Program-made: the position numbers and the translations under genes
IMG/VR virus record: IMGVR_UViG_3300028030_000009
Location: 1-64,000 of that record
DNA: 64,000 nt
Strand: one strand, 5' to 3'
From: a virus
The notes under the pieces: model-generated
Seen by the model: only the letters and a program-made list of their open reading frames with translations
What the model was told of the DNA's origin: nothing
The model's database searches: none
In this document: positions 7,319 to 47,603 of the stretch, in pieces
Layout of the letters: each line of letters starts with the position of its first letter
How positions within the stretch are numbered: the stretch's first letter is position 1

Positions 7319-9130
7319 TTACTGACCGCCTCTTGCCTCATATTTGAGCTCCGTGACTTGCTTTTGCTCAAGGAACTCCATCCTATCCTTAACAGCAGCG
7401 TACAGTAACCAGTCTTCCTTCTGCAGCCTATCAAGCTCGGAGCGTCGTTGCCCTTGCTGGAGCTGCAGCAATTGCTGGGCGATAGAGTCTGCCTCTTGCA
7501 TGATTGCCTGCTGGTTGACCTGCTTTGTAGAGCTCTGAGATAGCATAGCCTCTGTTTTTGCTTTCTCTTCGAGGTTCTGGGTAATCTCTTGCTGGAACTG
7601 CTGGAGCTCCGACTGCTCTCTGATTCCTCTCTTTTGCTCTTCGAGAATACGCTCTCTCTCCATTTGAGAGTCGAGTTTGAACATAGCAGAGACTGTACTG
7701 TCAGAGATTTTACCTTCGTCAAGAAGTTTAAGAACGATTTGTTTCTCGGCGATGTCGTCAACAAGCCTAAACGGAGTAATTGTAATAGTTACCGGCTCTT
7801 TGTCTTTGTACTCTGCAACTTTTCTTGCGATGAAGTTCAAAGCTTTCTCCATTGCATGAGTAAGTCCCATTAGCTGGTTTTCAAGAACACGAATGGATGC
7901 TCCAGCAGCTGTATAACCAAGGCCTCCCTTTACAAACTCAACCGGAACGCCAATTGCGTTCATTACCATTGTTGATATCTGGTCAATCTCATTCGCAAGA
8001 TTGAGCTGCTTGCCTTCACCAAATGCTGTGATTGCCTGAAGAGGGATAGGGAAGTATTTAATTCCCGTAGGATTGTTTTTGTACGAAGCAAGAATTGACT
8101 CAATTTTCTTTGATACCTCTGAGCCTTGCATATAGTTATAGATTGCTTGGCCATCCTGTCCGACGCTTGAGGGAGAAAGACCCCTTAGTGGGAAAATCAT
8201 ATCGGAAAGGATTCTCTCCTGCGCCTTTCTTGTAAGAAGCAGAGAAATCATATCCGGGATAGCGGAAGTCAGGATTGGCATACCCCATCCAGTGTTTGTG
8301 CCATACATCTTCTTGCGCTTAAGATGGAGGATTTTTGACTCATCGAACTTTACAGGAGTCCCTTTGACTGCTGCAAGTATGATGTCTTGAGGAAGATGGA
8401 AGAGCATATCGAGGTAGCCATTGTTGATTAGCTTCTTCTGGGAGTTTGGGATTCTATGGTAGTACGTAGAGCGACCAGTGATGTAATCAGTGACAAACTC
8501 CATTGTTGTCACGGGCCACGAAACGATGTTGATTGCCTCATCGTTTTTCACGCTAATGTCATGCAGAGTAAAGAGCGACTGCTTTCTACACACAGGACAT
8601 GCACCCTTGAAGACAAGGATTTCCTCCTGGTCCCCTCTTTTGTTCTTGTCATCCTTGTCTTTTCCTAGACGCCTTACATTTCTTACTGTTTCTGAGGATG
8701 GCTTCAAGTCTGACTTGTTAGCGAAGTTGTTTTGTCTGAGTTTTGCCCCACATGCCGCGCACTGAACCTGTCTCTCAACTGGGAAGAATACGGACAAGAA
8801 TACGTTTCCAGAGAGCATATAGTTGTAACCAATCTCCTGAAGCCTGTCTATGACTTCAAGTGAGTTCTCCATAATATTCTTCCACGAGCGTCTCTTCTCT
8901 GTCGCCAACTCACTTAAATCCTCTGTGTGGTAATTCAGGTTTGTGATTGACACGGAGGACATTTTCTCAATTGCGCTCGCAACAAGGGGCACATTCGCAA
9001 CAATGAACTCAGACCACTGAATAACTTCCTTGATGTCGTTAGGCAGAACATCAGCATAAACGCTGCTTAGGTTGTTGTACCTTGTCAAGAATCTTCTATC
9101 GTATAACTTTCCACTAAATGTCGAAGCCAT
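7319..9130 (-). CDS. probable portal protein
   Basis: 603 aa; ILHLKR...TGWGMPILTSAI...RKAQERI portal-like segment, IGVPVEFV, Gln-rich coiled-coil C-terminus; CxxC...CxxC insert. Confidence 0.6.
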   Translation of the reverse strand: MASTFSGKLYDRRFLTRYNNLSSVYADVLPNDIKEVIQWSEFIVANVPLVASAIEKMSSVSITNLNYHTEDLSELATEKRRSWKNIMENSLEVIDRLQEIGYNYMLSGNVFLSVFFPVERQVQCAACGAKLRQNNFANKSDLKPSSETVRNVRRLGKDKDDKNKRGDQEEILVFKGACPVCRKQSLFTLHDISVKNDEAINIVSWPVTTMEFVTDYITGRSTYYHRIPNSQKKLINNGYLDMLFHLPQDIILAAVKGTPVKFDESKILHLKRKKMYGTNTGWGMPILTSAIPDMISLLLTRKAQERILSDMIFPLRGLSPSSVGQDGQAIYNYMQGSEVSKKIESILASYKNNPTGIKYFPIPLQAITAFGEGKQLNLANEIDQISTMVMNAIGVPVEFVKGGLGYTAAGASIRVLENQLMGLTHAMEKALNFIARKVAEYKDKEPVTITITPFRLVDDIAEKQIVLKLLDEGKISDSTVSAMFKLDSQMERERILEEQKRGIREQSELQQFQQEITQNLEEKAKTEAMLSQSSTKQVNQQAIMQEADSIAQQLLQLQQGQRRSELDRLQKEDWLLYAAVKDRMEFLEQKQVTELKYEARGGQ

Positions 9131-9976: not shown

Positions 9977-12403
9977 TCAGTCGATAACTGCTACGTCAAC
10001 AGCAAAGTCTGTCAGTCTATTAAGAAGAGTCTTTCCTTTCGCAAGGAACTGTGCAATCTTCTTGTCCCCGACTTGCTCCGAGAACTTGTTTCTTTGAATC
10101 TCAATCATAAGCAGTGTTCTCGCAAGTCCATTGACGCCGGTAAGAATGTCGTCAATATACTTCATCGCAATGCTCCTCGTATCGTCAGTGTCTACGAGAT
10201 ACGAGATAATTGCGGCTGTCAAGACATCCTTATCGGCAATCTGAGACAGCTGCGCAAGAACATTAGGGTCAACATTCAGATTGTACCCCTCGCCTGCAAG
10301 ATTGGCTGCCTCTTCTTGTTGGGCCACAATATCACCATTCTGGGCACCGATTCCAGTGTCCGTTCCATCATTCTGCGGCGAAGCTGCAGTAGCATCACCA
10401 GCAGGAACTCCCGCATCTTGCTCTGCTGGCGCTTGTTGTTGAGCAGCAGCCTGGCCCTGTGCCTGTTGTAGTTGCGCTATCTCCGCTTGTAGTTGCTGAA
10501 GGATTTGGGCAGGAGCCATTCCTTGTGCTTGCCCGGCTGCGAGTACATCTGCTCCGTTGATGCCCACTGAAGCAGCCAGTTGGTTAATCTGGTCAATGAT
10601 TGCTTGGTCATCTCCCTGAGCTCCTTGAGTAGTGGCTTCAGGCTGACCTCCTTCTCCCACCACTCCTTGTCCTCCTGCAGCCGATACCATCCCAGCTCGT
10701 CCGCTCTCAGTTTCTCCTTCTTCAGGTGCAGTCCCCGCATCTTGTCCTCCTTGTATCCGTAACATAGCAGCACGCAGGTCAGCAAGTGCAATCTTGTTCT
10801 CTGCAAGCTGCGCAAGTATTGCACGAAGTGTATCACTCAGAACTTTAAAATCCACTGGGAAGCCAGCTGAGTCTTCTGCTGTCTTGATGATTTTAGACAC
10901 ATCCTCTCCATTGAACCCGTCTTCTGCAAGCTTCTTAAGAATCTGTTCTCTTGTGAATCTTGCTCCATCGTACTCAAACATACCAGCTGAATACCTAACG
11001 TCAAATGAAGCAGTCTTGATGAAAGTCTCATCAAAACCGTCAAGAGTCATCAGCTCAGAGAATGGGTCAATATCATTTGTATGTTCTTTTTTGGCTGACG
11101 ACAATGCAAATGCGTTTCCTTTACCGAGGAATAGAACATGGTTTGGGTTGACGTAAATCTCTTTACCTCTTCTCGTATACCCATAATCCTCTCCAACAAT
11201 AATCTGACGATTGTCATCGTCGCCGTACACTTCTACGACAAGTTTATTCCCGACTTTCGTAACTGCAACAATCTCATAAAACTCAATGTCGTTTTTGGAT
11301 GCGGTAACAAACAGGTATCTTGCCTTTTTCGGGTCAACCTCGCCACCAAAGATTGCAGCGATGTGTGCACGTGGGTCATCGTTAACAGCAGCGGCTTCAA
11401 GTCCAACATATGGAGGTCTTTCTGGATTCGGGTTATACCACGCTTCTTTTCTGCCTGCGTGTTGAGCGATGTCATGCACAATCTTGCTTCTTCCTTTGTA
11501 GAACATCACATTCTGGGTAGAGCCACCTTTTGTAGCAACGACAACAGGTCTAAGGTCAAGGTCACGAGTAAGCGCGTTGTAAATTCCGGGCTCCGTGAGA
11601 ATCTCAAGGTTTGACTTGGCCTTCATTAGCATTTCGCCAAGAAGAGGAACCTGCATAACGACACGCTTTGTCTTTATTTTTTCCGCATCCTTAGCTGCGT
11701 GCTTGTAGAACCCATTGGTTGCAATTTGCTTTGCCGCATCAGTCCTGACACTCTCAGGAAGCTCTTTCAGCTCGGCAATCTTCGTATACACTTTGCCGTC
11801 ATGCTTCTCTCTTGTCGCTGTCGCAATCTTATGCATGGTGACAGTCTGCTTTGCCTTCTTGAACAACTCATCTGGATAGTTGCTGTGCAGCACCTCTCCC
11901 ATCTCACTGTCATTTGCAAGCTTGACAAACTGCTCAGCGAAAGCAGGGTTTTCAACAAGAGCGCTGATTACAGTATAGTTGTCCTCTGCCACCTTTGGCG
12001 AAAGAGTTTGTGGCGTTGCAAACAGTCTACCGATGATTCCCTGGTCAACCGTGATTCTGTCTGCCTCTGCCTTATCGACTACTTCTCCAAAGCTTGCAAC
12101 CTTCGATGCATTGATTAGCTTCTTGTACATCTTTTTTGTCATACCGTATAGACGCTCTGTATCTGTGTCTCCAATATAGGAGATTGCGTCTACCGCACCA
12201 TTTCTGTAGATGATTGGACAGAACAGAACTCTTCCATTGATGACGAAGTAGATGGCGCCGACAGCATATGACAGGTCATCTTCTACATGGTCAACGTCAA
12301 CCTTTACGATTTTAGGCAGCAGTTCGTGATAGTTGCTTGCAATTTGCTTTGTTGCCTCATCAACAATAAGGTCTGTGAGCTTTTTTAGTACTTGTGATTT
12401 CAT
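9977..12403 (-). CDS. large head-associated protein with many K-x-A motifs and a Gln/Ala-rich linker
   Basis: 808 aa; SKVAS, PKVAE, VKLAN, HKIAT, YKHAA, IKTAS, IKTAE. Confidence 0.7.
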   Translation of the reverse strand: MKSQVLKKLTDLIVDEATKQIASNYHELLPKIVKVDVDHVEDDLSYAVGAIYFVINGRVLFCPIIYRNGAVDAISYIGDTDTERLYGMTKKMYKKLINASKVASFGEVVDKAEADRITVDQGIIGRLFATPQTLSPKVAEDNYTVISALVENPAFAEQFVKLANDSEMGEVLHSNYPDELFKKAKQTVTMHKIATATREKHDGKVYTKIAELKELPESVRTDAAKQIATNGFYKHAAKDAEKIKTKRVVMQVPLLGEMLMKAKSNLEILTEPGIYNALTRDLDLRPVVVATKGGSTQNVMFYKGRSKIVHDIAQHAGRKEAWYNPNPERPPYVGLEAAAVNDDPRAHIAAIFGGEVDPKKARYLFVTASKNDIEFYEIVAVTKVGNKLVVEVYGDDDNRQIIVGEDYGYTRRGKEIYVNPNHVLFLGKGNAFALSSAKKEHTNDIDPFSELMTLDGFDETFIKTASFDVRYSAGMFEYDGARFTREQILKKLAEDGFNGEDVSKIIKTAEDSAGFPVDFKVLSDTLRAILAQLAENKIALADLRAAMLRIQGGQDAGTAPEEGETESGRAGMVSAAGGQGVVGEGGQPEATTQGAQGDDQAIIDQINQLAASVGINGADVLAAGQAQGMAPAQILQQLQAEIAQLQQAQGQAAAQQQAPAEQDAGVPAGDATAASPQNDGTDTGIGAQNGDIVAQQEEAANLAGEGYNLNVDPNVLAQLSQIADKDVLTAAIISYLVDTDDTRSIAMKYIDDILTGVNGLARTLLMIEIQRNKFSEQVGDKKIAQFLAKGKTLLNRLTDFAVDVAVID

Positions 12404-14271: not shown

Positions 14272-14523
14272 ATGTCAAAAAAAACCATCAAAAAGAAAAA
14301 AAGCATTAAAAAGTGTGGGCTCGTTGTCACTGATTTAGATAGAGACATTGCCTCTGTTTCACCAGATAGCGCCCAGGTTATTGACAAGGTCAGCGCTACT
14401 TGGAACGACATTCAGAAGAAGAAAATGAGCAGGACACAAAGGTATTTAACCTATGTCAAGAGACCGAAGAGGCCAACATCCAGGATTGGACTACCAAAGA
14501 CACCAAGAGTAAAAAAGATTTAA
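14272..14523 (+). CDS. small basic protein
   Basis: 83 aa; TATAAT at 14237-14242 and AAGG RBS. Confidence 0.6.
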   Translation: MSKKTIKKKKSIKKCGLVVTDLDRDIASVSPDSAQVIDKVSATWNDIQKKKMSRTQRYLTYVKRPKRPTSRIGLPKTPRVKKI

Positions 14524-14998: not shown

Positions 14999-15880
14999 AT
15001 GAGGATACCTGTGTTTTCAACTGGGGATATAACAATCGGCTCAATTGACAAAGAGTGGCTGAAGAATAACAACCCACTCATAAAATCATCTACAGGGGAA
15101 AGTGGAGCTCGAATTCCAGCTGTCGCTGTTGCGTATAAGCCTGATATCTTATATGATGACGGGGAAATAATTGTTCCAGGTGATTCGTTCTTCTTGATGT
15201 ACAGGTTTGACTTGTCGCATTTTAGGGGCGAGAAGGTGCCAATCGAAATTATCCCATATGAGCGTGATTCTGATATGGCATGGGTTCTTGTCGAGTATAC
15301 AAGATGCTTCAAGCATAGGGACAAGGTGCTCTCTGAAATTTTTGACGAAATCGTAGGCTCAAGACCGTTGTTTCTTAGTGAGTACAGGCGTGTTCGCATA
15401 GAAGAGCTTGTAAACACTATGTGGTCAGACACAGAGTCACCATTGTTTAGGAAAATCAGCCTCACTCCCGGAGACGACGGAGAAATAACATGGTCTGGAG
15501 CACACAACTCACTAAGAAAACATCTGTTCTTTGATGCGGCATCCCCGTTCGTGGAAAGATTCACATTTGAGCAGCAGGCCAAAATCCTTATCTCATCTCT
15601 TACTGTCGCCAAAAGCATTAGTGGCTTCAAGGATGTACTCTGTGCACAGCTTGGGTTTGATGCAGTCATGATTGCAATTGAAGCTGCTCTGCAAAAGGTT
15701 CGTGATGTTATGTACTTTGACGAAATATACAACTACACCAAAGAGAGTATTCTTGTTCTTGGGGAAATCGACTGGAAAGAGAAGGACAGGTATAGAGGAG
15801 TATCTGGAAGGTCTACTCTATTTGAAGACATTCGGGAACATAGCGATAGATTTCACGACAAGCACTCTTCACATTCTTGA
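14999..15880 (+). CDS. hypothetical protein
   Basis: 293 aa, AAGGAG RBS. Confidence 0.75.
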   Translation: MRIPVFSTGDITIGSIDKEWLKNNNPLIKSSTGESGARIPAVAVAYKPDILYDDGEIIVPGDSFFLMYRFDLSHFRGEKVPIEIIPYERDSDMAWVLVEYTRCFKHRDKVLSEIFDEIVGSRPLFLSEYRRVRIEELVNTMWSDTESPLFRKISLTPGDDGEITWSGAHNSLRKHLFFDAASPFVERFTFEQQAKILISSLTVAKSISGFKDVLCAQLGFDAVMIAIEAALQKVRDVMYFDEIYNYTKESILVLGEIDWKEKDRYRGVSGRSTLFEDIREHSDRFHDKHSSHS

Positions 15881-15888
15881 AATAATAG

Positions 15889-15897
15889 TGCTATAAT
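15889..15897 (+). promoter_or_regulatory. extended -10 promoter (TGCTATAAT) facing the non-coding region
   Basis: exact TGnTATAAT with no credible ORF downstream for ~890 bp. Confidence 0.6.
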
Positions 15898-15903
15898 ACT
15901 CCC

Positions 15904-16100
15904 AAGGATGGTGGACGCCCACTAGTGTTCCTATCCCAGCCACTACTCCAATGGCGGTTGAGCTGAAACCTTGACTTATAGCCTATCGGCTAGGTTAAGG
16001 TTCGGTTCAGCCGCTACGGAAAAGCGCCGCCCACCGCTTAGAAAGTGGCTATCGTAGGGGGTTTGCGTGTTGTACGACCACACCCAAAAACCCCCAAAAC
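15904..16100 (+). ncRNA. candidate structured non-coding RNA
   Basis: ~28 bp hairpin 15952-16016 with six G:U pairs, closing stem AGCCACT/AGTGGCT, side hairpin AAGCG/CGCTT, 3' GGGGGTTT/AAACCCCC stem; boundaries approximate. Confidence 0.55.
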
Positions 16101-16242
16101 CCCAAAACAAAACAACAACACTTCTTCTCAATACTACTATTCCTTTCCTATCTATACTCACTATATGATTCTTTGGCTGTTAGTACTCCTTTAATGGGGT
16201 TTGGTTTGCTTTGTATGTATATGGGTTGGGGTGGCTCCATAT

Positions 16243-16455
16243 GTCCAGAACACTTAGGCCAGAGCACCTATGTTATACGGAACACCAAAAATCGTACTAC
16301 AACCCGTAGTAAGCGTTTTTTTAGCAAAAATGAGTTTTCTACACCTTGGTGTCAAAAATATGTGTGGGCTTTTGTTGGTTATGCTCTGCTATGTTATACC
16401 TCTATACCTATTTTGGTCCGGAGCACCTGTCTTTTTCCCTATGATAGGGCACATT
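16243..16455 (+). repeat. dispersed ~13 bp repeat GTCCRGARCACYT
   Basis: GTCCAGAACACTT 16243, GGCCAGAGCACCT 16257, GTCCGGAGCACCT 16416; weaker copies at 16275 and 16443. Confidence 0.55.
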
Positions 16456-16770
16456 GGGCTTTTCTACCAATCAATTCTCGCTTAGTGTTTGCAAGAAACA
16501 ATACAGTACTACGGGTTGTAGAAAGTACTTGCGTATTGTTTTTTCTACGGGTTGTAGAACGCTTCTCTTGACAACCTTTTCTACGGGTTGTAGAAAATAC
16601 ATACAATCCTATCTGCTCTCTTGCAGCAAAGGTGATATCTCAACTTTTTACTACGGGTTGTAGAAAACAAAAATCATACTATTGTCTACGGGGTGTAGTA
16701 ATGGTATAATTGCAATACTGACTACGGGGTGTAGAAAGCTAGCTTTTAAATACTTTACTACGGGTCGTAG
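16297..16770 (+). repeat. CTAC-N5-GTAG repeat array (7 direct copies, 35-36 bp period) plus one inverted copy
   Basis: direct copies start at 16509, 16545, 16581, 16651, 16686, 16722, 16758; inverted CTACAACCCGTAG at 16297. Confidence 0.9.
16682..16710 (+). promoter_or_regulatory. sigma70-type promoter TTGTCT-17-TATAAT (extended -10) overlapped by a repeat
   Basis: -35 at 16682-16687, TGGTATAAT at 16702-16710; repeat 16686-16698 lies mostly between them. Confidence 0.65.
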
Positions 16771-16790
16771 AAAAAAATAAGGATTGAAAA

Positions 16791-17027
16791 ATGGAAGCTC
16801 TTGTTGATGTAGATGGTAGAGAGATAAACGTTGGAGACATTGTAGAGGAAGATGGGCATCTCTTTGAGATAGTGTGGCACAATGGAGAGTACATGGCTAA
16901 GTACTTCTATCCTGATGAGAGTAGAATCGGGAGCCTTGCTGATGTAACTTCAGAAGGTATCTGGCATAATTATGGATTGAAGGTTGTATCTTCCTGCAAC
17001 GAAAACATCGATAGGATTCTCAAATGA
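16791..17027 (+). CDS. YopX-like protein
   Basis: LVDVDGREINVGDIV...EIVW resembles the YopX DxxGxEIxxGDIV motif. Confidence 0.65.
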   Translation: MEALVDVDGREINVGDIVEEDGHLFEIVWHNGEYMAKYFYPDESRIGSLADVTSEGIWHNYGLKVVSSCNENIDRILK

Positions 17028-17668
17028 CATTCTCAGAGTTGAAGAGGAAAGCATATAATGAGGGCATGACTCTTGTTCCGTTGTATATACTTGTTGAAGA
17101 TTGGGGCGGGAGGCTATTCGGGAAAGAGCGGCTGTACAGAAAGAAGGATTTGATTGAAGGACCAATCCGTGTTCTGTCTTCCGATGAGATACGGTACAAC
17201 TTTGCTTTCCCGAACCCATTGATTGAGCCAGCTACAGTTAAGTACTCACCTACTATTCTCAAAAGACAGATTCTTACATCACGCTGCATCATCTTTCCAG
17301 GAAGAAAGACGTTCAATGGTGTTGCTTGGTATGCGCAGACTGACAGGAAGATTACAGTTCCACCATTCCACTCTTTTGTTGTTGACCCGAAAGGAGTTGA
17401 GCGCTCTGTGAGACTAATGCTTTGGTTTAACAGGAGAGATGTCATTGATGCAATCAATACAGAAATGCCGAAGAATGGAATGACAATATCTTTTATGAGA
17501 GAGCTGCCTGTGCCAGTAAATGAAACACCGAACGATGTGGTCGAAGAGTTTGTGGATTTAAACAACAAGAGGATGCAGCTTCTCTCTGGTGTTGAGATGA
17601 CATCGTCTAACATAAGAAAGCTTATTGAAAGATACGACAGGGCTGGGGAGGGGAATGCCCCAGCCTGA
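17024..17668 (+). CDS. hypothetical protein
   Basis: 214 aa, ATGA overlap with the upstream gene. Confidence 0.75.
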   Translation: MTFSELKRKAYNEGMTLVPLYILVEDWGGRLFGKERLYRKKDLIEGPIRVLSSDEIRYNFAFPNPLIEPATVKYSPTILKRQILTSRCIIFPGRKTFNGVAWYAQTDRKITVPPFHSFVVDPKGVERSVRLMLWFNRRDVIDAINTEMPKNGMTISFMRELPVPVNETPNDVVEEFVDLNNKRMQLLSGVEMTSSNIRKLIERYDRAGEGNAPA

Positions 17669-20717: not shown

Positions 20718-21299
20718 TTACTTTCCGAAAATCTCTTCCAGCAGTTCGTCGATGTCTTTTTTGTCTTTTTTGGCTTGTACACCCTTGATGATGTCCACAA
20801 TAATCTGCATTACAGCACCGGGAATATCATCGCTGTCGTCGTTTTCGACAACCTTTCGCTCTGAGTGCTTTTTGATTTCTTCGACCTCTTTTACTTTTTC
20901 GATGCCCTTTTGAGAAAGCTCCCCAACTCCATAGTACAGAAGAGTCGCATTCTTTGACTTATCAATGAGCTCAATAAACTGTTTGGCCTCTTCTTCTGTT
21001 TCAAAGACGAAAGATTCGGTGTCCTCTTCAAAAAAGTTTACGACTTTGACGATATGATACTGCCGCTCATATTCTTCGTCTCTGCCGATAGGTTCTCCGT
21101 TTGCCTCAACCACTGTGTATTCCTCGGCGTCCTCTTTGTTGCATGCCTTCAGTTCAGATTTGCAAATCTTGATTCCATAGGGCTTTCCGTCTTCGTTTTC
21201 GCCTACACATACATAGTGACTGTCATCAACTTTTGTCACGACAAGCTCTTCCCCGTTTTTTACTTTGAAAATTGTGCCTTTTTTGAATTCGTTTTTCAT
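20718..21299 (-). CDS. hypothetical protein
   Basis: 193 aa acidic ORF. Confidence 0.7.
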   Translation of the reverse strand: MKNEFKKGTIFKVKNGEELVVTKVDDSHYVCVGENEDGKPYGIKICKSELKACNKEDAEEYTVVEANGEPIGRDEEYERQYHIVKVVNFFEEDTESFVFETEEEAKQFIELIDKSKNATLLYYGVGELSQKGIEKVKEVEEIKKHSERKVVENDDSDDIPGAVMQIIVDIIKGVQAKKDKKDIDELLEEIFGK

Positions 21300-45979: not shown

Positions 45980-46227
45980 CTTTCTTTCTCTCGCAAGCGC
46001 TCTCCATGCGTAGCAATTTTAACCACATCAATCATTTCTCGCTCAATAAGCTCTTTTGTTGCCTCCATGGTGTCAGCAAGCTCATCGTATCCTACGTCTT
46101 CTAATGGCTCCCAGACGATTGTTTTTTCAGGCTCATTCATGAAGTCATCGTATGTTCCATCGCTCAGGTAGCAGCCTGCTGCAAGTCTTTTTGCTTTTTC
46201 TTTGATTATGTATTTCAAGTCGTTCAT
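45976..46227 (-). CDS. hypothetical protein
   Basis: 83 aa; IVWEPLE. Confidence 0.6.
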   Translation of the reverse strand: MNDLKYIIKEKAKRLAAGCYLSDGTYDDFMNEPEKTIVWEPLEDVGYDELADTMEATKELIEREMIDVVKIATHGERLREKER

Positions 46228-47603
46228 TGCTTACCTCCTTCATATTTTACATTCGCAGAAACAAGTGCCTTGGCAACCTGAGGAACAACACTGTTTCCAC
46301 ACATCCGAACTTGTGCGCTTCTCGTGAGCTTTCTCCCGCGAGGGTTTCCAGTCTTTGAATCATACACATTATCTATCGCATACGAATCAGGGAAACCTTG
46401 CGCCCTAAATAGTTCCCTAGGTGTGAACATCCTCATGCACACATCTGTAATAACGTAATCGTCACCATTTACATTTACCACTCCGAACCGCTCTTTTGTT
46501 GTAACTGTGTGCAATGGAGAATCAACTGGATGGGACGTTCCGTTCCCATAATATTTCATCAGGAATGTTCTAACCTCTCCATGATGAGAGCCGCTGCTTG
46601 TAATTGTGTGCATTGGCTCATCCATCTTTGAGCCATAGTTGTTGTTTCTCATTTTCACAACATGGCTTAGTACAAGTTGTTGCTGGCTTCCAGTCCTGGT
46701 TACTGTTGACATTGGCGTGTCAACCGCCCTGCCGACATTTCCAAGGTTGTGCTGCGCAACAAACAATGCAGCCTTGTCAACATGCATAGAATTGCATTCA
46801 ACCGGTGCTACAAATGGCTTATCATTATCAATTACAAATTTTCTTATCCCTGTTGCTATTCTGTGCATTGTCTTCTCTGCGAGCGGTCGCTTGACACCGT
46901 ACTGCTTTCCCTCTTCCTTGCTCAGAAAAATTGAGTATGCTGGTGTGTCCCAATCAATGCAGTCAGCAGCAGTTTTCCATGGAAGTCTATCTGGATATTT
47001 TCTTGGGTCTCCATGCGTCGGCTCTGGCCAAACGATTGGCTTTCCATCACATCTGGCCACCATGAATAATCGCTTTCTTGTAGTTGGCGCGCCATAGTCC
47101 GACGCTACGAGCTCTTTCCATTCGACCTTGTACCCTATATGCTCAAGCTCTTTTACAAAAATATTGAACGTCATGCCAGCCTTGTCTTTGATTGGCATTC
47201 CGTTATCGTCAAGAGGCCCCCATGTCTGGAACTCTTCGACGTTTTCAAGGATAATCACATCTGGCCTAACATCGTTAGCCCACCTTACTGCAACCCATGC
47301 AAGGCTTCTTATATTGCAGTCTAGAGGCTTCCCGCCTTTTGCTTTTGAGAAATGCTTACAATCCGGCGAGAGCCATAGCAATGCTACACCATGTCTAACA
47401 GCACCGCATACCTTCTTTGGGTCAACGTCAAATACATCCTCTTTGTAGTGAATCGTGTTCCTGTGGTTAGCAGCATGCATAGCAATTGCTTCATCGTCAT
47501 GGTTGACCGCAATATCTGGAGACACTCCAAGAGCCCACTCTATCCCAAGGCTTGCGCCACCTCCTCCAGCAAATAGGTCAACTATTAATTTACCGTTAAA
47601 CAC
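46224..47603 (-). CDS. C5-cytosine DNA methyltransferase (orphan)
   Basis: DLFAGGGG (I), SPDCKHFS (IV), ENVEEF (VI), TRKRLF (VIII), RAQGFP/GNSV (IX-X). Confidence 0.95.
   Translation of the reverse strand: MFNGKLIVDLFAGGGGASLGIEWALGVSPDIAVNHDDEAIAMHAANHRNTIHYKEDVFDVDPKKVCGAVRHGVALLWLSPDCKHFSKAKGGKPLDCNIRSLAWVAVRWANDVRPDVIILENVEEFQTWGPLDDNGMPIKDKAGMTFNIFVKELEHIGYKVEWKELVASDYGAPTTRKRLFMVARCDGKPIVWPEPTHGDPRKYPDRLPWKTAADCIDWDTPAYSIFLSKEEGKQYGVKRPLAEKTMHRIATGIRKFVIDNDKPFVAPVECNSMHVDKAALFVAQHNLGNVGRAVDTPMSTVTRTGSQQQLVLSHVVKMRNNNYGSKMDEPMHTITSSGSHHGEVRTFLMKYYGNGTSHPVDSPLHTVTTKERFGVVNVNGDDYVITDVCMRMFTPRELFRAQGFPDSYAIDNVYDSKTGNPRGRKLTRSAQVRMCGNSVVPQVAKALVSANVKYEGGKQ

Follow-up and report, generated by a model that had tools for sequence, protein, structure and literature searches.

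A phased repeat array beside a solitary half-HsdS-like gene: a putative self-regulating operator region in a phage

The window analysed here is a stretch of 64,000 nucleotides, the first 64 kb of a 77,081-bp IMG/VR virus record (IMGVR_UViG_3300028030_000009; CheckV completeness estimate, 41%). At 15868-17668 it carries a promoter, a folded leader RNA, eight copies of the inverted repeat CTAC-N5-GTAG and the gene for a basic protein of 214 amino acids (aa). By its structural model this protein is a single HsdS-type target-recognition domain (TRD) followed by a long helix, i.e. half of the S subunit of a type I restriction enzyme, comparable to the Esub1 protein of Streptococcus pyogenes. It is probably, though by no means certainly, a homodimeric DNA binder that would repress its own operon by way of an expanded operator array. 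A first-pass annotation, made by a model from the letters of this DNA, had listed a 'master operator region' among several competing explanations; this comes close to the explanation favoured here, with sites that lie at the gene's promoter and co-vary with the 214-aa family.

How might such a region work? The conserved unit consists of an element in the leader RNA, a solitary half-HsdS-like gene and, at the promoter of this gene, a few bipartite inverted repeats in a short cluster. On the model of Esub1 and of truncated S subunits from type I enzymes, the long helix would pair the 214-aa protein into a homodimer, and the two identical domains would read the two half-sites of CTAC-N5-GTAG, which are separated by about one turn of the DNA. 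This phage has the site multiplied to eight copies over 470 bp, with one copy between the -35 and -10 elements of a proximal promoter (P2), two copies just downstream of it and the rest in a leader transcribed from a strong promoter farther upstream (P1). With rising amounts of the protein the array would become occupied, so that P2 would be blocked and transcription from P1 hindered in reading through; the protein's own operon, made up of the 78-aa and 214-aa genes, would in this way be switched off sharply and cooperatively.

The repeat array and its promoters

Most genes lie on the minus strand, and the array stands in a plus-strand island at about 14.27-20.67 kb. Within this island, 15881-16790 (910 nt) is the sole stretch of the window of at least 350 nt without an open reading frame (ORF) supported by codon usage, so that the earlier description of a single large non-coding region holds; small ORFs inside the gap were ruled out by codon usage. 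The gap contains a promoter, a strongly folding RNA, and one inverted and seven direct copies of CTAC-N5-GTAG, and the 78-aa and 214-aa genes follow. No tRNA or tmRNA was found in the window, and Rfam searches, at the gathering thresholds over the window and by E-value over 15700-16900, returned chance microRNA and snoRNA matches only and no family. BLAST against 50,697 phage records gave no match for the DNA or for the 214-aa protein.

The one inverted and seven direct repeats reported at first pass are present as described. The direct copies, which are the proposed operators (16509-16770, plus strand), have the form (T)(T/A)CTAC-N5-GTAG(AA) and begin at 16509, 16545, 16581, 16651, 16686, 16722 and 16758. 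Their start-to-start spacings are 36, 36, 70, 35, 36 and 36 nt, a regular 35-36 bp interrupted by one 70-bp gap that holds a degenerate CTGC-N6-GCAG (16613-16626), and the last copy ends 20 nt ahead of the 78-aa ORF. Upstream, the inverted copy (16297-16309, minus strand), formerly termed an anti-repeat, is an exact match to CTACGGGTTGTAG and is followed by a run of seven T; the eight sites together span 470 bp. With up to two mismatches allowed, the 13-mer has these eight matches against 0.48 expected by chance, and the CTAC-N5-GTAG palindrome occurs nowhere else in the 77-kb record. Column-wise conservation over the seven 36-nt units is limited to one block of about 16 nt, CTACGGGTTGTAGAAA, with positions 17-33 not conserved. 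The spacers are 71% A+T and unrelated to each other, and are unique, as first thought. All three variant bases among the eight copies fall within N5, and none in CTAC or GTAG.

Two promoters can be placed with respect to these sites. The distal one, P1 (15868-15897, plus strand), is TTCACA-18-TATAAT with an upstream TG and 11 of 12 matches to consensus; it includes the TGCTATAAT element of the first-pass annotation, found at 15889-15897. The proximal one, P2 (16682-16710, plus strand), is TTGTCT-17-TATAAT with an extended -10 (TG) and ten of 12 matches, and it lies inside the array: copy 5 (16686-16698) falls between its -35 and -10, and copies 6 and 7 are downstream of its start. Scanning from P1 to the genes gave no convincing terminator in this phage or in two of the related phages introduced below (G001 and G002). 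The confinement of variation to N5, the presence of an inverted copy and the overlap with a promoter together fit a symmetric dimer that reads the array as DNA.

The extended -10 (TGnTATAAT) has seven plus-strand matches in the 77-kb record, four of them within 3 kb of the island (15889, 16702, 17825 and 18743). The clustering of four of the seven is the basis for regarding the island as densely promoted, and it suggests a block of genes that are probably expressed early. A further sequence word, (A/G)GAGCACCT(A/G)T, is present twice in the gap (16261-16272 and 16420-16431) and again at 74996-75007 of the full record (G000), in the non-coding stretch before a tRNA-Met gene; its non-coding placement is only suggestive, since an 8-mer is expected about twice in 77 kb.

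Autoregulated phage repressors with clustered operators have a familiar example in lambda CI and Cro with OR1-3. The likeness is in the several inverted-repeat copies over the promoter of the regulator's own gene. The differences are that the proposed reader has a restriction-enzyme TRD fold in place of a helix-turn-helix or ribbon-helix-helix, that a long non-specific spacer separates the half-sites, and that there are eight sites at a regular 36-bp spacing. Are similar arrays found elsewhere? Searches of IMG/VR with the exact repeat gave single chance matches only, and those for three phased CTAC-N5-GTAG sites gave only collagen-like and other coding tandem repeats, together with one unrelated operator cluster. 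This cluster, in a GC-rich viral contig (L016 7799-7898; IMGVR_UViG_3300004249_000023), consists of four CTACA-N3-TGTAG palindromes with spacings of 34, 34 and 19 bp, with a 405-aa gene on one side and, on the other, an 87-aa gene whose product resembles a helix-turn-helix protein of the Cro type. It looks like an ordinary operator cluster that shares the CTAC/GTAG half-sites by chance.

Could the array instead encode guide RNAs? The first-pass annotation had compared the layout to a scaffold RNA, an anti-repeat and a guide array; the array would be transcribed and processed to guide RNAs of about 36 nt, with the structured RNA as the scaffold and the inverted copy as the anti-repeat. The period of 36 nt is indeed the length of a tigRNA (PMC12045711), the array is probably transcribed from P1, with no strong terminator in the scan, and the inverted copy is a perfect complement, over 15-16 nt, of copies 1 and 4. 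TIGR arrays, however, have two alternating repeats of 8-12 nt (edge and loop) and two 9-nt spacers per 36-nt unit, with a Nop-domain Tas protein alongside (PMC12045711). What is shared with TIGR-Tas is the 36-nt period, the occurrence in a phage and the shortness of the repeats; here a single conserved block and an unconserved 22-nt spacer make up each unit, in place of dual repeats, and the arrays are not conserved in relatives. In CRISPR arrays the direct repeats measure about 23-47 nt, the spacers are of comparable length and cas genes lie close by. The present repeat, at 13-17 nt, is too short for a CRISPR repeat, and the neighbouring genes have no PADLOC or Pfam match to Cas proteins.

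Properties of the putative transcript point the same way. As RNA, the repeats form hairpins of 4-8 bp (-2.5 to -6.8 kcal/mol) that are no better than those of shuffled sequences, the hairpin of the inverted copy amounts to just -5.4 kcal/mol, and above shuffle level the spacers have no match elsewhere in the genome. The neighbouring proteins are without Pfam, PHROG or PADLOC matches to known families, guide-RNA effectors included. For Pfam this means no match at E <= 0.01 for 10 proteins and none at E <= 10 for five of them, a sequence-level result that has the folds of the 293-, 204-, 296- and 325-aa proteins outside its scope. One conserved neighbour carries the DNA-reading HsdS fold. Related phages hold two or three sites of other sequences, and not the fixed repeats with variable spacers by which the first-pass annotation proposed to recognize a guide system. 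A guide array is therefore hardly credible, and the 36-nt period alone is insufficient to call one; a tempting false lead is thereby removed. A type III toxin-antitoxin locus, with ToxI-like 36-nt repeats, was also considered and was ruled out, as just 16 of the 36 nt are conserved.

The half-HsdS-like protein and its relatives

The 214-aa protein (17024-17668, plus strand; isoelectric point (pI) 9.4) is the proposed binder of the array. It was at first taken for an orphan, and is now seen to be a member of a small family with an HsdS-type fold. The AlphaFold2 (AF2) model, obtained with a five-sequence alignment, has a predicted local distance difference test score (pLDDT) of 86.7 and a predicted template modelling score (pTM) of 0.80, and consists of a globular domain and then a C-terminal helix of about 40 residues (170-210). 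The five sequences were needed; a two-sequence alignment gave a pLDDT of 32. Foldseek with this model had Esub1 as its top match (8vsq_A, E 1.3e-6), and VIA Z values were 13.7 for Esub1 (187 residues), 13.1 for the PacII S subunit, 11.1 for BsaXI S and 10.0 for HsdS 1yf2, over 168-194 residues. All Foldseek and VIA-align matches are TRDs of type I, IIB and IIG enzymes and of gamma-class methyltransferases, and in the ESM Atlas the protein falls among clusters of Methylase_S (feature score 0.96, TM 0.65). Sequence comparisons are far less informative: none of eight family members matches any Pfam family at E <= 1 (P0001 and P0002 match nothing at E <= 10), searches of PDB sequences with the 214-aa protein found nothing, and its metagenomic sequence relatives are a handful only.

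The model thus has the TRD fold and the conserved-region helix of HsdS. It has one TRD in 214 aa, where a complete HsdS has two in one chain and is encoded beside hsdM and hsdR. No N6_Mtase gene (hsdM-type, PF02384) is present in the 77-kb record or in four related records, a complete 188-kb genome included, and no N6-adenine methyltransferase catalytic motif was found in the real genes of the record. A single TRD-like head with one helix and without a linked hsdM, the build that characterizes Esub1-like solitary half-S proteins (PMC11754733), is also what the model shows. Esub1 itself (SpyM3_0890; PDB 8VSQ/8VSR) is a homodimeric 'half S subunit' of S. pyogenes, and its authors favour a role as transcription factor or repressor over one as restriction subunit (PMC11754733). 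Both proteins have a single HsdS-type globular domain and a long C-terminal helix in about 200 aa, and both are encoded away from hsdM. They differ in that their identity is about 11%, that Esub1 is a bacterial chromosomal gene and the present one a phage gene, and that here the gene is preceded by a candidate target, which varies along with the protein from relative to relative.

Half-size type I S subunits, truncated or natural, that act as homodimers provide the second comparison (EcoDXXI and EcoR124I truncations, NgoAV; PMC3874165). The N-terminal truncation of EcoDXXI reads GAAY-N5-RTTC, and CTAC-N5-GTAG has the same 4+N5+4 inverted-repeat format (PMC3874165). By this likeness one TRD and a helix would dimerize and read a symmetric bipartite site here also, and the basic charge of the 214-aa protein counts in favour of DNA binding. 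The half-size subunits, however, act only within M2S or R2M2S enzymes encoded alongside, which methylate or restrict sites throughout genomes, whereas this phage has no hsdM or hsdR and its sites are clustered only at the protein's own gene.

Does the association of gene and sites extend beyond one phage? Relatives were reached solely by way of the portal protein (7319-9130), which is 58-65% identical in four records (G001-G004); G001 is a complete genome of 187,664 bp with direct terminal repeats, and G004 is a fragment. Viral, metagenome and genome collections, searched directly with the 214-aa protein, the 293-aa protein and more remote homologues of the two, yielded no loci. A profile of the 214-aa family matches G001, G002 and G003 (E 8.6e-49, 3.4e-42 and 8e-26) and nothing in G004, and the half-HsdS-like proteins of the relatives are 16-24% identical to the copy in this phage. 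Read in the direction of this gene, the order of the neighbourhood is the same: a small Lys-rich protein (here 14272-14523), a small membrane protein, a non-coding stretch of about 560-840 nt, the half-HsdS-like gene and, downstream of it, homologues of the 204-aa and 296-aa proteins of this phage.

Each of these relatives has bipartite repeats no more than about 110 nt upstream of the half-HsdS-like start codon, and their sequence differs from phage to phage. In G001, ATACC-N6-GGTAT is found twice, 74 and 34 nt before the ATG, and the two sites flank TGATATAAT. In G002 there are three GATAC-N6-GTAC upstream of the gene, and in G003 two TTCGT-N7-ACGGA shortly before a TATAAT. The G001 motif has no match in its genome (188 kb) other than the two sites at the gene, though a reversed control pattern also has two matches there; the two G003 sites are likewise the only matches (165 kb; control none), and the G002 motif has one stray match elsewhere (62 kb). 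The site therefore changes with the protein, with four phages having four bipartite motifs, each unique or nearly unique in its record. The half-site centres are 9-12 bp apart in all four, about one helical turn, and neighbouring sites are 26-42 bp apart. A gene and a changing palindrome that are kept together while the protein diverges are the signature of a sequence-specific binder with its own operators. Its fold and the format of the sites both indicate the 214-aa protein as this binder.

The same comparison separates the parts of the composite locus that the first-pass annotation had grouped. The trio of RNA, repeats and 214-aa gene recurs in two relatives, and repeats and gene in a third, so these do belong together; the 293-aa and 78-aa genes do not. 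The earlier reasoning also had flanking proteins that fail to co-occur with the array as one part of what would refute its proposal, and here again the result is mixed: the 293-aa and 78-aa genes do not co-occur, whereas the 214-aa gene is kept in three of the four related records.

Is the adjacent protein the reader of the repeats? Some other phage or host factor might bind them, its sites lying next to a half-HsdS-like gene to which they are unrelated, and the conserved asymmetric centre GGGTT could mean an asymmetric reader. But gene and nearby bipartite repeat travel together in four phages with the repeat sequence changing each time, which is hard to explain in this way, and so the adjacent, equally divergent protein is the likely reader. 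The only other ORFs that adjoin the array, those of 293 and 78 aa, are missing from the relatives. An independent factor is quite unlikely.

A role of the array as origin of replication or as a site of partition or packaging, in which the repeats would serve as iterons or recognition boxes for the assembly of a nucleoprotein complex, with or without a half-S binder, is improbable to a similar degree. Eight phased sites with A+T-rich spacers do resemble iteron or centromere arrays, and between the sole large non-coding stretch of the window and the beginning of the head and packaging operon, which includes the portal gene, there are about 3 kb. In the relatives, however, the two or three sites are tight at the start of the gene, which is an operator layout, unlike that of an origin or a pac site. 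The iterons of an origin lie next to an initiator gene and have an A+T-rich unwinding element with them; here the replication genes are at 46-64 kb, 30-47 kb off. The neighbouring genes have no ParA-type Walker motif. G001 has direct terminal repeats at its ends, and therefore its terminus is elsewhere than the half-HsdS-like locus.

The main rival keeps the 214-aa protein as the reader and gives it a host partner. A phage orphan S subunit would recruit the host type I HsdM, and perhaps HsdR, and a hybrid M2S2 would bind or methylate the sites. The operon would thereby be under epigenetic control, or host restriction would be disturbed through the diversion or titration of its subunits. Orphan hsdS on lactococcal plasmids function with chromosomal hsdM and hsdR. 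Such plasmid genes are mentioned in the literature. Classical S subunits require M for DNA binding (PMC3874165). The site spacing of 36-42 bp in all four phages would suit side-by-side packing of bulky complexes, and each half-site presents an A on each strand, 8 bp apart, like type I targets (Table 1 of PMC3874165). Against a host partner are the lack of an N6_Mtase gene in any of the records searched and the finding that Esub1, the closest structural relative, did not convincingly bind HsdM (PMC11754733). The surface that binds M may be lost, as the family is too diverged for a sequence match to Methylase_S, and for incoming phage DNA unmethylated sites would be a hazard, should HsdR be recruited. 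The partnership with host HsdM is thus unlikely, and roles in origin, partition or packaging are less likely than it.

A self-repressing homodimer has its own difficulties. In classical type I enzymes neither S nor M alone binds DNA (PMC3874165), and the DNA binding and target of Esub1 are themselves unproven (PMC11754733). No family member tested matches the Methylase_S profile (PF01420). The N5 centre GGGTT is kept in five of the eight copies, and in the orientation of the whole unit, despite randomized flanking spacers, and this conservation exceeds what a purely symmetric half-site reader explains. In G002 the promoter scan called no consensus promoter at the sites, and the co-variation of site and protein is drawn from four phages only. 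Eight sites far exceed the need of autoregulation, and as the sites are at the protein's own gene only in all four phages, self-repression cannot be its whole purpose. All of these points weigh against the explanation favoured here.

Leader RNA and neighbouring genes

The structured RNA of about 200 nt that was noticed at first pass is real by its folding statistics: 15895-16110 folds at -92.5 kcal/mol, with z -7.8 on the plus strand versus z -2.1 on the minus strand. The leader RNA (15904-16095, plus strand), which matches no Rfam family, can be divided into box 1, GCCCAC (15917-15922), a long hairpin of 28 bp (15952-16016), the box 2 hairpin with loop CCGCCCAC (16022-16039) and a 3' hairpin (16056-16095). 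The long hairpin dominates the fold and is an insertion specific to this phage, absent in relatives. Both boxes are kept in G001 and G002, which have GCTATAAT or CTACAAT at the position aligned with P1; common to the three phages are a GCCCAC box about 20 nt past the -10 and a 5-bp hairpin whose 8-nt loop has GCCCAC once more. The box 2 stems of the three are entirely different in sequence, and still 15 of 15 cells are paired and five of five pairs change on both sides, which none of 500 shuffles equals. One G-U pair in this stem speaks for a function as RNA or as a single DNA strand. The fold of the whole RNA is significant in G001 (z -3.35) and not in G002 (z 0.03), and G003 has no GCCCAC boxes.

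What might this element do? Leader-RNA signals near early phage promoters are known in the nut boxA/boxB of lambda and the put of HK022. With these the present leader shares a short hairpin of invariant loop and a single-stranded box within the first ~150 nt of an early transcript, before a long leader; it differs in that the sequences are unrelated, the loop being NNGCCCAC (8 nt), with no Rfam match, and in that no N-like protein was identified. By analogy, and as a conjecture from three sequences, the small conserved motif may be a nut- or put-like signal or a site of protein binding. A retron was considered for the RNA and rejected, there being no Pfam family in the neighbours scanned, a wrong order of hairpins and a long hairpin that is missing from the relatives.

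Directly past the folded RNA is a G-free, C/A-rich tract of 90 nt (16077-16166, plus strand) that begins as C3-5 A4-5 repeats; the G-free runs at the same place in the relatives are shorter (28-46 nt). A G/T-rich, C-poor stretch (16166-16240) adjoins it. The tract may serve for the loading of Rho, give a G-quadruplex on the opposite strand or pair with the G/T-rich stretch.

Two genes at the locus stand apart from the conserved unit. The 293-aa ORF (14999-15880, plus strand) is present as the first-pass annotation had it and has coding-like codon usage (log-likelihood ratio (LLR) 0.28); it is phage-specific and outside the conserved module. Its product has no Pfam, PHROG or PADLOC match and is a singleton in a search of 5.8 billion proteins, the sole leads being weak Atlas matches to ParB/DndB-like families (0.77, TM 0.48). 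The 78-aa ORF (16791-17027, plus strand; codon LLR 0.42) encodes an acidic protein (pI 4.4) and is phage-specific as well. The label 'YopX-like' that was given to it has no support; it matches nothing in Pfam or PHROG and is a singleton. As neither gene has a counterpart in any of the four related records, the complete 188-kb genome included, both are insertions specific to this phage. The stop codon of the 78-aa gene overlaps the start of the 214-aa gene (ATGA), an acidic protein being translationally coupled to the basic half-S protein, a pairing reminiscent of Esub1, which has an insertion helix that binds Prx and whose DNA-binding face this small acidic protein blocks (PMC11754733). By that analogy the 78-aa protein may be a modulator of the half-S protein, an idea only.

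Other features of the record are of interest in their own right. A 193-aa ORF (20718-21299, minus strand) has a weak match to the PADLOC SduA/DUF4263 model (E 2.2e-4) and to a PHROG without function. The sole DNA methyltransferase seen in the record is a 459-aa C-5 cytosine enzyme (46224-47603, minus strand; Pfam E 3.9e-34), and since the match covers residues 7-449 against a model of 324 positions, a large insertion is implied. Beyond the end of the window is a cluster of ten tRNA genes (Pro, Ser, Leu, Asp, Arg, Thr, Gln, Asn, Met and Ala) at G000 72126-75317 (L013 8126-11317). Some 280 nt ahead of tRNA-Met (L013 ~10880-11160) are non-coding and include, by eye, a tRNA-like stretch with a TTCAAAT loop that was not called by ARAGORN or Rfam.

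Significance of the proposed operator array

Operator arrays are already known, and so are solitary half-S proteins. What is new is the combination, a restriction-type recognition domain unaccompanied by a methylase that seems to serve as a phage regulator, with identifiable sites co-varying with it. A wider and distinctly tentative possibility is that restriction-enzyme TRDs were recruited in this ~190-kb vent-phage lineage as stand-alone transcription factors of swappable specificity, acting as homodimers on bipartite sites one helical turn apart. In the present phage the eight-site, 36-bp-phased array could then build a higher-order filament, and serve as an all-or-none switch of early genes or as a sink in which type I restriction subunits of the host are captured by way of the half-S protein. 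On this possibility the solitary half-S proteins of the Esub1-like class would have their first cognate DNA site.

A small conserved leader-RNA hairpin has been defined at the same time. Solitary half-size HsdS-like proteins are common in genome annotations, and Esub1, proposed as a transcription factor, is the one example with a solved structure (PMC11754733). The four protein-site pairs (CTAC-N5-GTAG, ATACC-N6-GGTAT, GATAC-N6-GTAC and TTCGT-N7-ACGGA) make the idea directly testable, and they could reveal the relation of TRD sequence to half-site specificity in proteins other than restriction enzymes.

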